15,822 bases of DNA from a virus (lineage: Duplodnaviria > Heunggongvirae > Uroviricota > Caudoviricetes). Where the stretch lies: positions 76,254-92,075 of IMG/VR virus record IMGVR_UViG_3300028048_000107. One strand, given 5' to 3'. The stretch's first letter is position 1. The number at the start of each line of letters is the position of its first letter. The notes under the pieces were generated by a model. The model did not search any database, was not told the DNA's origin, and saw only the letters and a list, made by a program, of their open reading frames with translations. Shown here piece after piece: positions 5,216-12,098 of the stretch. A program made the position numbers and the translations under genes.

Positions 5216-5244
5216 ATTATAGCATATTTTAAGGAATTTGTCAA
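5216..5244 (-). promoter_or_regulatory. sigma70/sigmaA promoter for the 60-aa gene and downstream tail genes
   Basis: TTGACA (5244-5239), 17 bp, TATAAT (5221-5216), with extended TG. Confidence 0.85.
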
Positions 5245-5265: not shown

Positions 5266-5308
5266 ACAAAAATAGGGGAGATAACTCCGAAGAGAAACCT
5301 CCCCTATT
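5266..5308 (-). terminator. Intrinsic terminator ending the five-gene operon
   Basis: AATAGGGGAG...CTC-TTCG-GAG...CTCCCCTATT followed by TTTGTATTT; cUUCGg tetraloop; lies 10 nt after the exon 2 stop. Confidence 0.8.
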
Positions 5309-5318
5309 TCTAATACAA

Positions 5319-5471
5319 TCACATGTATCTTGACTTCCAAATGCAGTATACTTTCGTATCTTTTGCATCTGGGTCATCAATATAAGCTTTAGCCATATTT
5401 AAATATGTTTTAGTATCTTCACCTAATATTTTACTAAAATCTGAATGTAACATATTAAGTAAATAGTACCA
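5319..5471 (-). CDS. Exon 2 (50 aa + stop) of the IStron-interrupted conserved phage hypothetical protein (148 aa spliced)
   Basis: TGG TAC TAT... gives WYYLLNMLHSDFSKILGEDTKTYLNMAKAYIDDPDAKDTKVYCIWKSRYM*. It begins right after the terminal G of the element, has no start or RBS of its own, and joins in frame to ...KYNKFD of exon 1. Confidence 0.9.
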   Translation of the reverse strand, partial: WYYLLNMLHSDFSKILGEDTKTYLNMAKAYIDDPDAKDTKVYCIWKSRYM

Positions 5472-5612
5472 CTGAAACCTCTCACGACTAAAGTCGCGAG
5501 GTTCTTAGAAATTACTCTCTAAGCTTTCTTTCATAAGAAAGATTCTCGGTCAATGACTCTATCGAGCCAAGTCTCTCCGAGCTAACCCCGTAAGTCCTAC
5601 GGTTTTTATATT
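5452..5612 (-). ncRNA. Predicted TnpB omegaRNA (reRNA): scaffold to 5472 plus guide from exon 2 (UGGUACUAUUUACUUAAUAU)
   Basis: After the tnpB stop: AACCGTAGGACTTACGGGGTTAGC...GAATC...GAACCTCGCGACTTTAGTCGTGAGAGGTTTCAG, the typical IS605 right-end/omegaRNA layout. The 5' boundary is uncertain and may overlap the end of tnpB. Confidence 0.75.
5481..5500 (-). repeat. IS200/IS605 right-end subterminal hairpin
   Basis: CTCGCGAC-TTTA-GTCGTGAG, 9 nt from the element end; matches the left-end hairpin at 16/20 positions. Confidence 0.8.
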
Positions 5613-6785
5613 TTACGCTAATTTTAAACCCTCATTTAAAATGTTTATTGAAGCATTTATGTCTCTATCATGCTGTGTTTTACAACTTGGACATGTCCAC
5701 TCTCTTACATTAAGATTTTTTGTGTCCTCATTCTTATATCCACATACATGACATGTTTGACTTGATGCAAAGAATGTATCTATTTTAATTAGTTTCTTAC
5801 CATACCATTCACATTTGTATTTAAGTATTTCTACAAACTTACTCCAAGATACGTCTGAAATCGCTTGTGCAAGTTTATGATTTTGTAGCATATTCTTAAC
5901 CTTAAGCGTTTCTAAGCAAATAATATCATAAGTTCTTACTAATTCAGTAGTATACTTTTGAAGAAAATCTTCTCTCATATGTCTAATATGTTCATGAAGT
6001 TTTGCTACTGCTAACTTATTCTTCTTCCAACGATTACTACCAATTGATTTTCTTGATAATGCCCTTTGAAGTTTTTTAAGTCTTTTTAGCTCTTTCTTCA
6101 AAAACTTTGGATTTTCTTTCTTTGCTCCATCAGAAGTTATTGCAAAATCCTTTAGACCTAAATCTATACCAACTTTCCTATTAGTTTTTGGCAATGGTTC
6201 TAATACTACATCAGTACAACATATTGATACATAATACTTTCCACTTGGTTCTTGTGAAATAGTTGCATTCAATATTCTACCTTGTAATTTTATCCTATCT
6301 CTATACCTAACTTTACCAAGTTTAGGTAGTTTGATATATTTACCAATTACTTCTATACTATTATTAGTAAAAGTTGTCTTGTAAGATTTCCAGCCATCTT
6401 TCTTAGATTTAAATTGAGGATGACCATTAAGGTCAAATCTTGTAGGCTCTCTCCCAATCTCAACTAAATGTGCTAATTTCTTTGGGGTATATTTTGGCCC
6501 TTCCTTTTGAATCTTGAAAAATCTATCATATGCTTCACTAAGGAACTTAGTAGCATTTTGCAATGCCCACTTATCTGGCTCTTTAAGCCAAACAAGTTCC
6601 TTCTTTAATTTAGTAAGTTCCCTACTCAATTTAGCATACCCAAAACCTTTTTCGCCAGACTCAAAAGCCTTTTCCTTTCTATCTAAGAAATGATTGTAAA
6701 CGTATCGAGTACAACCAAAAGTCTTTTGCAATAATATTTCTTGTTCTTTTGTTGGATATATTCTGACTTTAAATGCTTTTTCCAT
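5613..6785 (-). CDS. tnpB: RNA-guided endonuclease TnpB (IS200/IS605 family), apparently intact
   Basis: N-terminal KAFKVRIYPTKEQ...FGCTRYVYNHFL; RuvC-I VGIDLG, RuvC-II LETL, Zn ribbon CHVC/CPSC, RuvC-III DRDINAS; RBS GAGGTG. Confidence 0.97.
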   Translation of the reverse strand: MEKAFKVRIYPTKEQEILLQKTFGCTRYVYNHFLDRKEKAFESGEKGFGYAKLSRELTKLKKELVWLKEPDKWALQNATKFLSEAYDRFFKIQKEGPKYTPKKLAHLVEIGREPTRFDLNGHPQFKSKKDGWKSYKTTFTNNSIEVIGKYIKLPKLGKVRYRDRIKLQGRILNATISQEPSGKYYVSICCTDVVLEPLPKTNRKVGIDLGLKDFAITSDGAKKENPKFLKKELKRLKKLQRALSRKSIGSNRWKKNKLAVAKLHEHIRHMREDFLQKYTTELVRTYDIICLETLKVKNMLQNHKLAQAISDVSWSKFVEILKYKCEWYGKKLIKIDTFFASSQTCHVCGYKNEDTKNLNVREWTCPSCKTQHDRDINASINILNEGLKLA

Positions 6786-6806
6786 TGTACTCTCACCTCG
6801 AAATAT

Positions 6807-6835
6807 AGTATAACATATTTTGAGCCAAAAGTCAA
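6807..6835 (-). promoter_or_regulatory. Intron-internal promoter for tnpB/omegaRNA
   Basis: TTGACT (6835-6830), 17 bp, TATACT (6812-6807), extended TG, about 20 nt above the tnpB start. Confidence 0.75.
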
Positions 6836-6859
6836 GTAAAATATAAAAACCTTTGTCGT

Positions 6860-7284
6860 GTTTTGTGAGGTTTGTCGTTCCTGTAAAAGCGTTACCCCTT
6901 ACAGAGTTCTCTTATGAACTTCCTGTAGATTTCCTACAGGCACAGACTATATCTTATCCATGCCACAAAATAAATTTGTAGTTTAGGTCTATTTATGTCC
7001 CTAGCACTTACTAGGTACTTCCCTCAAGAGGAATAGTCGTTGAACTAATTTCTTAGCTACTGATTGTCCATTTTTTAACATTTAGGATTTAACCTTATGC
7101 TATGCAGTTAATTATTTTTATTTTCATAACCTACATTTAGATTTAACTGCCTTTAGGAGTTTCCAGTAATTAAAATAGTATTGCATAGAATAATATTCTA
7201 TGACTATGTACTTATTTCTAAATACACTGACTAGTTTGTTCGCCTAACTCATGACTGAATTCACGAGTGTGCGGCTCACAGTTA
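6860..7284 (-). ncRNA. Group I intron catalytic core, subgroup IA2-like
   Basis: P AATTACTGGAAACTCC, Q GGACAATCAGTAGC, R GTTCAACGACTA, S AAGATATAGTC. P7 GACUA/UAGUC, P3 CUAUUU/AAAUAG, P7.1 and P7.2 hairpins, P9 with GAAA loop. IGS GUCAG (7231-7227) pairs with exon UUGAU including the U.G pair; P10 ACUA/UGGU. Confidence 0.93.
7248..7267 (-). repeat. IS200/IS605 left-end subterminal hairpin, located in the intron P1 loop
   Basis: CTCGTGA-ATTCAG-TCATGAG, 17 nt inside the element; sequence-similar to the right-end hairpin. Confidence 0.75.
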
Positions 7285-7578
7285 ATCAAACTTATTATAC
7301 TTTAAGTTTTGAGAGTTTAATAGTTGAGTTGTTTGAGATAAATCCCAATGCTCACCTTTTGTTCCGTCTACGTTATCCATCTCTGCAACAGCGTATTTCG
7401 ATAAATTTTCACTAAAATGCTTTCCAAATATTGCTTCATGTACTGTTAACATTGCTTTTACATATGCATCTTGATTAACATATCTCATTTCCCCTATGCT
7501 TTTCATGACAGCATCGTAAAACTTCTTCTGCAAAGTTGGATTGCCCTCAATTGCTTTCCAATATTCCTTTTCTTCCAT
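7285..7578 (-). CDS. Exon 1 (98 aa) of IStron-interrupted conserved phage hypothetical protein
   Basis: The track's 98-aa ORF ends TTT GAT|TAA, where TAA is the first 3 nt of the intron. The spliced product reads ...GTKGEHWDLSQT...KYNKFDWYYLLNMLHSDF..., a continuous motif I recognise from gut-phage hypothetical proteins (from memory). Confidence 0.9.
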
Positions 7579-8096: not shown

Positions 8097-8921
8097 TTAG
8101 GACAACGTACAACCACAACCATTAGCAGAAGCGTAAGGAGAACCTACAGTGTATGCAGGAACAGGATAAGGCTTTAATGCACTAACTAAAGCCTGTGTCT
8201 GTGCAGCATTATCAATCTGATTTCTTGCTGCTTGAAGATCTGACTGAAGAGCATAAATCTGATTATCTTTATCATTCATCTGCATAGTAGTTAATCTGTC
8301 AAGAATTTTCTGAGTATTTGCGTCAGACTCTGCTCTTGTAGCACATGCTTCAGTAGCTAACTGATATTTAACAGCTTCTATATTGTTATTTACACCACAA
8401 ATCTGATTCTGAGTTACATAGCCAAGATTAGCCATACCATTAGTAATTGCATTACCAGTTTGCACCATATTCATGTTTAGTGCATTAGTCTGTTCTGCAA
8501 TACCCATAGCAAGATTATTTGCATTTTGCATAATTGCCATATTAGTAGCATTTGTGTTCTGCAACATGCTATTATTGATATTAGCCATGCCACCCATAAT
8601 AGTAGTATTGATAGTATTTAGTCCTTGTAATTGATTATAACCAAGGGTGTTGATATCATTACCAATGTCACCAAGTTTAGCACTTAAATTCTGATACTGG
8701 AAACCATTATTGATGTCAGCCTGTGTTGCATAATTTGCAAGTGCTTGGTTGTTACCATTACCCCATGGGCCATAACCACCATTACCAAAACCACCCCAAG
8801 CCATTAAGAAAAATAGAAAAAATACAATCCACCCACTTCCATGACCAAAAAAGTCATCATTGTCGTTTCCTACATTGTATACAGGAGTAAGTCCACTCCC
8901 ATTGCTCATAAGATCTGCCAT
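8097..8921 (-). CDS. Hypothetical 274-aa protein: hydrophobic segment + Gly-rich linker + long N/M/Q-rich coiled coil + C-terminal GCGC
   Basis: RBS GGGAGG; WIVFFLFFLMAW (aa 31-42), GGFGNGGYGPWGNG, eight 11-residue repeats at aa 94-181, PYPVPAY..P...GCGC tail. Confidence 0.85.
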   Translation of the reverse strand: MADLMSNGSGLTPVYNVGNDNDDFFGHGSGWIVFFLFFLMAWGGFGNGGYGPWGNGNNQALANYATQADINNGFQYQNLSAKLGDIGNDINTLGYNQLQGLNTINTTIMGGMANINNSMLQNTNATNMAIMQNANNLAMGIAEQTNALNMNMVQTGNAITNGMANLGYVTQNQICGVNNNIEAVKYQLATEACATRAESDANTQKILDRLTTMQMNDKDNQIYALQSDLQAARNQIDNAAQTQALVSALKPYPVPAYTVGSPYASANGCGCTLS

Positions 8922-8995
8922 TTCACATCATCCTCCCGACAACTAGACAGATACAAAAAATACTTATCTATCAACACTAGTAGTAGTGAAAATAT

Positions 8996-9226
8996 TCAAT
9001 TATTATTTATACCAAACATTTGTTTTAATTGATCTAAATTCATTCCTCTTTGCTTACATACATTTTCTAAAATCTTCATTTGTGCTCTATGACTTTTTCC
9101 TTGTAACATTGATTGTGCTCTTTGGAACATAGGATTACTGCCAAACATTTGTTGCATCATAGCTTGAGGATTTCCAGAATTCATTAACATTTGAAGCATT
9201 TGTGCTGGATTAAATTGATTATTCAT
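8996..9226 (-). CDS. Hypothetical 76-aa Met/Gln/Asn-rich helical protein with NP motifs
   Basis: ATGA overlap with the upstream gene; RBS GAGGAG; NPAQMLQML, NPQAMMQQMF, NPMFQRA. Confidence 0.85.
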   Translation of the reverse strand: MNNQFNPAQMLQMLMNSGNPQAMMQQMFGSNPMFQRAQSMLQGKSHRAQMKILENVCKQRGMNLDQLKQMFGINNN

Positions 9227-9703: not shown

Positions 9704-9772
9704 ACCAGCTTTCAAAATACCTATAATACTCATATCATATGTACTTTAAAAACTTATCCACCTTATACTTAT

Positions 9773-9801
9773 ATTGTACCACATATTTCTGATTTTGTCA
9801 A
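9773..9801 (-). promoter_or_regulatory. sigma70/sigmaA promoter of the five-gene operon
   Basis: TTGACA (9801-9796), 17 bp, TACAAT (9778-9773), extended TG. Confidence 0.8.
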
Positions 9802-9804
9802 ATT

Positions 9805-9990
9805 TTAAATAAAGGGCTGTTTTCCTTTCTTTTTTGCCTTTACTGATCTTTGACCTTCATTATATGCGAATTTTTCTATATACTCTACTAGATGTTTAAT
9901 TTTATGGAAATTATCATCAAAGCCTGTAAGCTTCTCTAACCTCCAAATTAATTCATCCCAACATTGCTCTGAACTTTTTAGTTTACTCAT
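9805..9990 (-). CDS. Hypothetical protein, 61 aa
   Basis: ATG with own promoter and RBS AAGGTAG; its stop TAA is part of the next promoter repeat. Confidence 0.8.
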   Translation of the reverse strand: MSKLKSSEQCWDELIWRLEKLTGFDDNFHKIKHLVEYIEKFAYNEGQRSVKAKKKGKQPFI

Positions 9991-10012
9991 CTTCTTTCTA
10001 CCTTCTATTTAT

Positions 10013-10041
10013 ATTATACCACATTTTTATAAATTTGTCAA
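10013..10041 (-). promoter_or_regulatory. sigma70/sigmaA promoter
   Basis: TTGACA, 17 bp, TATAAT, extended TG. Confidence 0.88.
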
Positions 10042-10044
10042 ATT

Positions 10045-10200
10045 TTAAACATCATTACCAACAATATATATCTCATCATCATATACTTCAAGATCATCTA
10101 TATCAGCAAGAATATAATTATTATTTGCTACTATCTTTAATTTAAGTTCATCTTCTGGCTCACAAAACGCCAACTTTTCCATTAGTTCTTCTACACTCAT
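10045..10200 (-). CDS. Small acidic hypothetical protein, 51 aa (below track cutoff)
   Basis: MSVEELMEKLAFCEPEDELKLKIVANNNYILADIDDLEVYDDEIYIVGNDV*; own promoter and RBS AGGGTG; stop is part of the next promoter repeat. Confidence 0.8.
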   Translation of the reverse strand: MSVEELMEKLAFCEPEDELKLKIVANNNYILADIDDLEVYDDEIYIVGNDV

Positions 10201-10220
10201 CTCTTTCACCCTATACTTAT

Positions 10221-10249
10221 ATTATACCACATTTTTCAAATTTTGTCAA
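10221..10249 (-). promoter_or_regulatory. sigma70/sigmaA promoter
   Basis: TTGACA, 17 bp, TATAAT, extended TG. Confidence 0.88.
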
Positions 10250-10255
10250 ATTTTA

Positions 10256-10354
10256 ACAATAAAATGAAAGTTTAAACATATTTAATATAATTGCTACATC
10301 AATACTACAAATAATTAATATGATTATTTAAACTTTCAATTTACCTTAACATAC
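10256..10354 (-). ncRNA. Candidate ~100-nt hairpin small RNA
   Basis: Lies under a perfect promoter with no usable ORF. TGAAAGTTTAAA (10338-10327) pairs with TTTAAACTTTCA (10276-10265), plus CATATT/AATATG; ends in TTTTATT. Confidence 0.45.
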
Positions 10355-10458: not shown

Positions 10459-12078
10459 TTAATAATACTTCTCCCATTTAGTATAACCAGATCTCCATAC
10501 CTTACATGCACCACTATCTAACATTACACAATCATCTATATCTAAAGTATCATCTACCTTTTCACCACTAAGATACCAATAATGTTTTGGTATGCACTGA
10601 CAAACATCAATAAATCCCAACGACTTATATATTTCTCCATTAAAATAATCATTATCTGAATAGTACACAATATACTTAGGATTAAAATCTTGCTCAAAAT
10701 GATTCAACAACTTATTAGCACCATCAAATATGTTCAATCCATATTTAGTGAAATACCCGTGAAGCTCATACTGATCACATTCAATGCCGTTCATACTCAA
10801 GTTACCAAATGACATTACAGAGATAAGATCACCACCAAAAAATAGCCCATAATTTATACTGTTAAAATATGTACACCCATGTATATGATACATACTAATA
10901 AAGTTATCAGCTCTGTCATCATCTATCAATAAACATTGACAATCTTTTGCATGTATATTATCAGCATGATCATTTAAAACACAAGATAAATAATTCTTAA
11001 TTTTTTCTTGATTATTGTGCCAATCTATATCAAATATAGAAATAAGATGTACACCTTTTGACTTAGCCAATAAAAATTTATCTCTATGATAATATTTAGG
11101 CTTATCGTCAAAAATGGCACCTAACGATGAATGCCACTCAGAACCATTATACTCAATACCAATATTCTTGTTTACAATAAAAATATCAATTTCTTTGCCA
11201 TCTAAAATAGTTTTATTATGAATTTCTAGTATAATATCAGGAAAATTAACCTTTAACCACTCACATATTTCATGTTCTGCATTTGATCCTCTATGCTGAA
11301 TAAATCTACACCCACATGAAGTTGTTGCTCCACTTCTTAACTTATAACTATCAACAATAACCTTAGTTTTAGCTGAACATGAACAAGTACAATTCCAATA
11401 AGAATGCCCATTGATGAACCCCTTAAATGAATCTACATGCAACATGCCAAACACTTTCCCAGTCAAATCAATAAACCTTGAATGATGTCCATGCTTCCTA
11501 TTGCATATCGAACATGCTACAGTTTTACCATTACGTAACAATGAAGAATATGCAATAAAATAGTTACCGCAATCACACTCACACAACCATTTATCGCCAT
11601 ACAAATGATGCTTAACCACTAAATTACCAAATCTACTACCTTTAATGTTAATAAAATTAACAGAGTGCTTTTTTAGTGCGTGTTTATCCCTGCATACAGA
11701 GCATTCAGTAATCTTTTTTAACATCTTCTCATTAACAACTTCTTGATTCCCACAAGTACATCTAACCAAAATATAATTATTTGTCTTTACCCTCTTCACA
11801 AACCTAACATATATTAAATTTCCCCACACACTTCCTTGTAATCTCTGTATAGTTTTAGACAAAAGCCTAGCTTTCTTCTCACATCCACAAGACAACCTAA
11901 CTCCACCAGTTAATGCGTCAGCTCTAACACTTATAGGTTCACTACCACAATCACATTTACATATCCAGTAACTTCTTGTGCATTTATTACTATTTAAATC
12001 ACTTCTTTCTTTATCATATTTAACCACAGTTAACTTTCCAAATTTTTGTCCAACTAAATTTTTAAAATTCCCATTCAA
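10459..12078 (-). CDS. Free-standing Hef-like homing endonuclease (four Cys-rich repeats + Vsr/DUF559-like nuclease + C-terminal domain)
   Basis: Repeats of the form L.G..FG.L.V...W.C.CDCG...L..G...SCGC occur four times; then EHEICEWL...EIDIFI..KNIGIEYNGSEWH...HRDK...KGVHLISIF; then GANKLL..F...IVYYSD...GEIYKSLGF. Start moved to TTG 12078 because GAGGTGG lies 6 nt upstream (track start was 12093). Confidence 0.75.
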   Translation of the reverse strand: MNGNFKNLVGQKFGKLTVVKYDKERSDLNSNKCTRSYWICKCDCGSEPISVRADALTGGVRLSCGCEKKARLLSKTIQRLQGSVWGNLIYVRFVKRVKTNNYILVRCTCGNQEVVNEKMLKKITECSVCRDKHALKKHSVNFINIKGSRFGNLVVKHHLYGDKWLCECDCGNYFIAYSSLLRNGKTVACSICNRKHGHHSRFIDLTGKVFGMLHVDSFKGFINGHSYWNCTCSCSAKTKVIVDSYKLRSGATTSCGCRFIQHRGSNAEHEICEWLKVNFPDIILEIHNKTILDGKEIDIFIVNKNIGIEYNGSEWHSSLGAIFDDKPKYYHRDKFLLAKSKGVHLISIFDIDWHNNQEKIKNYLSCVLNDHADNIHAKDCQCLLIDDDRADNFISMYHIHGCTYFNSINYGLFFGGDLISVMSFGNLSMNGIECDQYELHGYFTKYGLNIFDGANKLLNHFEQDFNPKYIVYYSDNDYFNGEIYKSLGFIDVCQCIPKHYWYLSGEKVDDTLDIDDCVMLDSGACKVWRSGYTKWEKYY

Positions 12079-12098
12079 AATATACCACCTCAAGCATT

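Follow-up and report, generated by a model that had tools for sequence, protein, structure and literature searches.

Here, we describe a mobile element in a 15,822-nucleotide stretch of viral DNA (Caudoviricetes), hereafter called the window, which is part (positions 76,254 to 92,075) of the 92-kb IMG/VR virus record IMGVR_UViG_3300028048_000107. The element is very probably a non-autonomous group A (CdISt1/IS605-type) IStron, residing within a phage gene for a DUF7841 protein. The entire IStron spans positions 5472-7284 of the minus strand (1813 bp; minus-strand location applies to all features of the element and its host gene given below), is inserted directly 3' of TTGAT in sense orientation relative to the host gene, terminates with TTTCAG at its 3' end and is missing from sister alleles. 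It shows every defining feature of group A that is amenable to in silico testing. A ribozyme of class IA2 with P7.1, P7.2, and an extended P9, modeled as a hand-built structure, occupies the 5' end of the element. The insertion lies 3' of TTGAT, one of the group A targets besides ATTAT and TTTAT, and the last exon U forms a U·G pair that has further pairs of the internal guide sequence (IGS) stem on either side. The 3' terminus is of the TCAG type (...GGTTTCAG, ending at 5472), its terminal G being the predicted 3' splice site. The insertion sequence (IS) part follows P9.2 and a GAACGA-type motif within a stem of the 6-10 bp range, and encodes the IS200/IS605-family open reading frame (ORF) B protein TnpB, as assigned by Pfam and by alignment with ISDra2. 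Subterminal imperfect hairpins, as expected for IS200/IS605 elements, are present at both ends. In contrast, the element does not conform to mobile group I introns of the homing-endonuclease type; among the ORFs of the element, tnpB alone has a protein-family match. This bears out the kind of element, an IStron with an IA2 intron and TnpB, proposed in an earlier note on this DNA, as well as the TTGAT target and TCAG-type end, which are evident from the comparison of filled and empty alleles.

The host gene, whose function is unknown, lies in the structural region of the phage genome. Its exon 1 (7285-7578, 98 codons) ends with AAG TTT GAT, and the last five bases of this exon, TTGAT (7285-7289), constitute both the IS605-type target or transposon-adjacent motif (TAM) and the 5' strand of P1. 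Exon 2 (5319-5471, 50 codons plus stop) starts with TGG TAC TAT; downstream of it, at ~5280-5318, lie a hairpin and a T-run. In the unspliced reading frame, the first intron codon, TAA, is an in-frame stop directly after exon 1, whereas joining of the exons yields a 148-aa protein free of stops that reads ...KYNKFD-WYYLLNM... across the junction. Exon 1 covers positions 3-56 and exon 2 positions 64-109 of the Pfam DUF7841 profile, and the intact sister allele gives one continuous match to positions 3-109 (81.7 bits). Uninterrupted versions of the gene were found in two IMG/VR records, L005 and L006, recovered by a peptide-pattern scan of viral contigs, and in the metagenome contig L176; the exon 1 protein of the sister records is 99% identical to that of the window. 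At the predicted junction, these empty alleles read AAGTTTGAT|TGGTACTATTTACTTAATATG, i.e., ...TTTGAT|TGGTAC.... The predicted splice junction is thus exactly the sister allele sequence, and, because the empty alleles show the uninterrupted junction, the element boundaries are exact within one ambiguous T. A scan of viral and metagenome contigs for the junction word found the empty allele three times and no further filled copy; L176 and L005 possibly derive from one and the same assembly. The junction from 7285 to 5471, the 148-aa product, homologs continuous across FD-WYY, and an empty allele in related phages had all been anticipated in the earlier note and are confirmed by the sister sequences. 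The upstream flanks are 95-100% identical to the sister over 4.3 kb, save for one replaced patch, and downstream of exon 2 the similarity stops after 285 bp, at a mosaic boundary at ~5194. The replaced patch comprises ~300 bp between two genes (window ~8921-9009 versus L006:2464-2656, 42-48% identity).

At the 5' splice site, the IGS UAGUCAG (7227-7233, element positions 52-58) pairs with exon UUGAU and intron UA to form a 7-bp P1 with the U·G pair at the splice site. This pairing, including the U·G, is kept in six related elements, with a compensatory change in L112. The P1 loop harbors the left-end subterminal imperfect hairpin ACTCGTGA / TCATGAGT (7247-7268), conserved in related phage IStrons. 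The IA2 group I ribozyme core extends from P2 to P9.2 (6881-7226) and comprises the helices P2 (GAAA loop), P2.1, P3, P4, P5, P5a, P5b, P6, P7, P7.1, P7.2, P8, P9 (GAAA), P9.1, and P9.2, with a P3/P7 pseudoknot and tetraloop-receptor-like motifs. Presence of P7.1, P7.2, P9, P9.1, and P9.2 fits the expectation for class IA2. The classical R and S core motifs are present (CAACGACUA ... AAGAUAUAGUC), and an exact-pattern scan found the same motif pair in >100 viral contigs.

The ribozyme structure was built by hand from the window and three relatives, and its pairs were then counted on an alignment of 22 introns of related phages, with 500 shuffles and with 3' partners slid by 1-3 columns as controls. 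Paired cells amounted to 76.9%, compared to 65.9% in the shuffles, none of which (0/500) attained the observed value, and the covariation score was 0.262 versus 0.117; in the slid controls, pairing fell to 33-47%. P3 was 96.8% paired with compensatory changes at five of its six pairs, P5a was 94% paired with such changes at all eight pairs, and pairing in P4, P5, and P7 ranged from 94 to 100%. Covariation of the core and conservation of P1 in the six relatives agree with the IA2 core and IGS/P1 read from the sequence at the outset. A sub-threshold match to the Rfam LOOT RNA (RF03000; 30.9 bits versus a cutoff of 46.4, E 0.0023) at window positions 6905-6989(-), the only Rfam hit obtained at E<=10, spans the intron helices P8, P9, and P9.1; LOOT may be a motif related to IA2 introns or a piece of such an intron.

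Directly after P9.2, the motif GAACGAC (6874-6880) is followed by AAACCUC (6867-6873), the 5' arm of an enclosing stem whose partner is GAGGUUU (5475-5481). In group A IStrons, a short stem after GAACGA encloses the ORF region (Tourasse et al. 2014, PMC4227781). The stem described here is 7 bp long, and its 3' arm stops three bases short of the 3' end of the element, leaving the terminal CAG, which ends in omega-G at 5472. In the relatives, the stem reads AACCUC/GAGGUU, a one-base indel that is matched on both arms, and the next position co-varies, being A-U in L014, U-A in L123, and U·G in L074 and L116. GAGGUU also closes a local right-end hairpin with GAACC, in competition with the enclosing stem. 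Participation in both pairings implies mutually exclusive intron and omega-RNA folds, as known from bacterial IStrons.

The tnpB gene (5613-6785) encodes a 390-aa full-length relative of ISDra2 TnpB, to which it aligns end to end (E 2.7e-98). It contains all three Pfam domains, HTH_OrfB_IS605, OrfB_IS605, and Cas12f1-like_TNB. The RuvC triad D208/E292/D375 is aligned with D191/E278/D361 of ISDra2 TnpB, and the zinc finger CHVCG...CPSCK is kept with both CxxC pairs; the gene is intact, as had been claimed. The omega-RNA scaffold and right end (5472-5612) include a nexus stem-loop (5588-5602), stem-loop 1 (SL1; 5545-5581), and the right-end hairpin (5478-5501). The nexus, SL1, and right-end stems align across seven elements (the window copy and six relatives) with compensatory changes, and both SL1 stems co-vary. 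At the DNA level, the left-end (7247-7268) and right-end (5478-5501) sequences fold as hairpins conserved in relatives, in agreement with the IS end hairpins reported previously.

ISDra2 TnpB is known to perform RNA-guided cleavage with TTGAT as TAM (PMC8612924). As predicted from the flank in the earlier note, the putative omega-RNA guide, TGGTACTATTTACTTAATAT (5452-5471), comprises the 20 nt with which exon 2 begins. In the empty alleles of the sisters, TTGAT is directly followed by the identical sequence. Since the TAM is perfect and the guide matches at 20/20 positions, the sister phages are predicted TnpB targets. A promoter-like site (6807-6835; TTGACT-17-TATACT, TG upstream) is located 21 nt upstream of the tnpB ATG, downstream of both the ribozyme and the 5' arm of the enclosing stem. 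Because of this position 3' of the ribozyme, transcripts starting there could not splice. Similar sites were detected, by pattern match only, in seven of nine related elements.

This anatomy suggests how the element might operate. Read-through transcripts of the host operon would fold the ribozyme, with exon UUGAU and the IGS forming P1. The AAACCUC/GAGGUUU stem would loop out tnpB and set the terminal G at the active site, and exon ligation at GAU|UGG would restore the 148-aa protein. Ribozyme-free transcripts from the internal promoter would represent tnpB mRNA and omega-RNA precursor, the first ~16-20 nt of exon 2 acting as the guide. TnpB-omegaRNA would then cut any copy of the gene with TTGAT directly before the guide sequence, i.e., the empty allele, be it in a co-infecting or resident sister phage or at the donor site after excision. 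Recombinational repair with the IStron-bearing genome as template would insert a copy of the element, resulting in RNA-guided homing and retention, while movement to new sites would need a Y1 TnpA provided in trans. Beyond the anatomy and the filled/empty polymorphism, this scheme is modeled on work on ISDra2 TnpB (PMC8612924) and on bacterial IStrons, for which TnpB-driven homing and a conflict between splicing and omega-RNA production were described (10.1101/2023.11.20.567912).

Several points weigh against an IStron that splices and homes in this manner. Splicing, like TnpB cleavage and homing between co-infecting phages, is a property that we infer. Rfam at gathering thresholds gave no match to the intron, and the group I model RF00028 gave none even at E<=10. 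The ribozyme was built by hand because Rfam failed to recognize it; likewise, published IStron work required its own covariance model (10.1101/2023.11.20.567912). P10, which the earlier note had listed among the intron features, is weak, consisting of only 4 bp (UGGU/ACUA), and was not counted as evidence because the pairing is absent from relatives. TnpB carries an insertion of ~20 residues (about residues 99-120), absent from ISDra2 and the closest relatives, and the omega-RNA region contains a 41-nt insert (5504-5544) between SL1 and the right-end hairpin, present in this copy only and missing in the closest relatives; either insert could impair activity. The junction-word scan yielded a single filled allele. 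Finally, comparison of the flanks with one sister (L006) revealed no clear co-conversion tract, and therefore nothing marks the arrival of this copy as homing rather than transposition.

It is well conceivable, if not our favored view, that the element was inserted and spreads by ordinary IS200/IS605 single-strand transposition, with Y1 TnpA acting in trans from copies in the host chromosome, e.g., at a prophage stage, and that TnpB merely guards against loss rather than driving homing from phage to phage. Both end hairpins are intact and conserved in the family, the target site is the canonical TTGAT, and a co-conversion signature is not visible. One sister record was classed as a provirus, so phases of residence in a host chromosome are possible for this lineage, and two other TnpB elements at unrelated sites of the same genome imply that new sites are being reached. 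Against this stands the failure to find TnpA. No match to Y1 TnpA (PF01797) was detected in the 92-kb record or the two sister records, which agrees with the previously reported absence of tnpA, and no serine transposase was detected in the 92-kb record. No ORF was found between P9.2 and tnpB, where there is no room for tnpA. Because Y1 TnpA was not found and room for its gene is lacking, the element is regarded as non-autonomous. Moreover, a source copy is not known, as a scan of bacterial contigs comprising one genome per species yielded no TnpB above 58% identity, and hence no chromosomal source copy or host can be named. The closest TnpB among these bacterial contigs (58%), on L123 (CAUWBF010000010.1, an uncultured Clostridia metagenome-assembled genome), also resides in an IStron, inserted after CCGAT, with a second IA2 intron core ~2.9 kb further along; the L123 contig may itself be phage or prophage. 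Transposition is compatible with homing, and both can operate.

It is tempting to speculate, though only tentatively, that phage IStrons lacking TnpA are true RNA-guided homing introns and weapons against sister phages. Their internal promoter would produce ribozyme-free tnpB/omega-RNA, read-through transcripts would splice, and TnpB would convert or exclude co-infecting phages with the empty allele. If so, the dedicated internal promoter would side-step the splicing-versus-guide conflict of bacterial IStrons. A related explanation, which we consider unlikely, holds that inter-phage competition is the main selective effect, TnpB-omegaRNA destroying co-infecting IStron-free sisters. This would amount to marker exclusion as exerted by intron endonucleases, but with an RNA-guided nuclease, and the element would benefit the phage instead of just being tolerated. 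The perfect TAM and 20-nt target in sister phages, the promoter-like site dedicated to tnpB, and the accumulation of several nuclease-bearing mobile elements in this genome are in line with this explanation, and the concept is established for the protein homing endonucleases of T-even phages (reviewed in PMC13565253). However, a single-site cut in a sister genome would lead more often to repair and homing than to exclusion, and only four related loci are known. That the element is an immobile, decaying relic, which may still splice and so keep the gene usable while TnpB or the omega-RNA no longer works, might be suggested by the unique 41-nt scaffold and 20-aa TnpB inserts and the lack of TnpA, but is very improbable given an entirely open tnpB frame with all catalytic and zinc-binding residues, intact scaffold stems throughout, and sisters that lack the element at 95-100% identity in the upstream flank, which argues for a recent gain.

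As a group A IStron, the element closely resembles CdISt1/CdiIStron and other members of this group in having a 5' IA2 intron, an IS part after P9.2 and GAACGA, and a short enclosing stem (PMC4227781; 10.1101/2023.11.20.567912). Further traits shared with the CdISt1 type are insertion 3' of TTGAT, a U·G pair in a continuous IGS stem, the TCAG terminus, an IS605-type TnpB with the omega-RNA in the 3' untranslated region of tnpB, and the lack of tnpA. The latter applies to all eight IStron copies in Clostridioides difficile 630, none of which has a full tnpA (10.1101/2023.11.20.567912). Differences from CdISt1, to which the element was likened by published description, are its location in phage DNA and not in a bacterial chromosome, the loss of tnpA without visible remnant, and the 41-nt insert in the omega-RNA scaffold. 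In comparison with ISDra2 TnpB-omegaRNA of Deinococcus radiodurans (PDB 8EXA, 8H1J, 8BF8; PMC8612924), the catalytic triad, the zinc finger, and TTGAT beside the left end are shared; however, ISDra2 contains no intron and carries tnpA, and the window TnpB is ~20 residues longer after position 98. The T4 td/I-TevI, nrdD/I-TevII, and Twort introns share the IA2 class, the location in phage protein genes, and the logic of cutting the intron-less allele at co-infection. In contrast to these homing-endonuclease introns, the nuclease of the window element would be RNA-guided, and its gene follows P9.2 instead of occupying a peripheral loop. Target recognition would be through the flanking exon sequence, so that the nuclease would re-program itself at each new site.

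The phage setting and the missing transposase, which the earlier note had singled out as the notable part, are not new in kind (PMC4227781; 10.1101/2023.11.20.567912). The background it gave on known IStrons was incomplete, as IStrons CbISt3 and CbISt4 in the Clostridium botulinum phages c-st and D-1873 were already reported in 2014 (PMC4227781). Like the window element, these are phage-borne and combine IA2 introns with TnpB, but they belong to group B, characterized by the IS607 type with a serine TnpA, GG-ending targets, a CGG terminus, and a long AU-rich enclosing stem, whereas the window element belongs to group A. TnpB homing was established experimentally for IS605 and IS607 elements, and a 2026 review proposed intron homing as a possible way for TnpA-less IStrons to spread, the targets including co-infecting phages (PMC13565253). 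The argument for novelty therefore fails, because phage IStrons, copies without TnpA, and the homing proposal were all previously published (PMC4227781; 10.1101/2023.11.20.567912; PMC13565253), and the window element adds nothing to the understanding of how IStrons work. It does provide a naturally occurring system, specified in full, in which RNA-guided intron homing can be tested, consisting of an IStron phage and empty-site sisters in which the TAM is perfect and the guide matches at 20/20 positions.

In the deposited phage collection, megablast returned no match to the element, and search in distant mode found an unannotated IStron of the same architecture in Clostridioides phage ES-S-0173-01 (CP067352.1, 63179-64998), with 68% identity over 66% of the window element at the DNA level only. 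The same architecture occurs in the phage records of five IMG/VR contigs (L014, L074, L112, L116, L088), whose TnpBs are 43-56% identical to that of the window. These six elements have a TTGAT or ATGAT target, the same end-hairpin family, the IGS UAGUCAG, and a GAGGUUCAG end. They reside in other host genes, whereas the window copy additionally has known empty sister alleles. No description of the six was found in the searchable literature. Among ~100 viral contigs sharing the intron core, 11 have tnpB just downstream, which is evidence that IStrons of group A occur commonly in the genomes of uncultured phages, at about one in ten sampled contigs with this core. The lack of annotation of phage IStrons is due to the standard group I model of Rfam, which fails to detect them. 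Placement of tnpB immediately 3' of an IA2 intron was observed in L014, L074, L112, L116, L088, L030, L077, L055, L054, L034, and L007/L062 as well as in ES-S-0173-01; several of these contigs show TTGAT|TAA starts and GAGGTTCAG ends, and none is annotated as an IStron.

Outside the window, the same genome contains a second IStron (G000:C1 ~50375-52535, minus strand), with an IA2 core 77% identical to that of the window, and a 495-aa TnpB-like ORF (C1:50543-52030). The two ends of this second element carry identical hairpins, and it terminates in ...GAGTTTCAG. The corresponding empty site in the sisters is CATGAT|GTAGTAC, and this genome reads CATGAC|CGATT..., so that the base at the 5' splice site of this element is C. 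Its assignment to group B/IS607 type, considered on account of an 18-nt repeat at both ends, was dropped in view of the sister empty site, which identifies the repeats as the end hairpins and the insertion as following CATGA(T/C) with the end TTTCAG. Two more TnpB-like ORFs lie on the minus strand at C1:41163-42281 (372 aa, 45% identical to the window TnpB) and C1:48325-49764 (479 aa). Four tnpB-type genes are thus present within 92 kb, in which TnpA of either type was not found.

Another mobile-nuclease gene of the region, located ~3 kb upstream of the split gene, is a 544-aa ORF (window 10459-12093(-)) that matches HNH and homing-endonuclease families of PHROG (E 1e-51 to 1e-53). Promoter-like sites of the TTGACA-17-TATAAT type with TG, perfect or nearly so, occur at four places in the window, at 10249, 10041, 9801, and 5244 (window 9759-10264(-) and 5216-5244(-)); by comparison with the sister phage, three of these four are situated within short repeats of ~60 bp.

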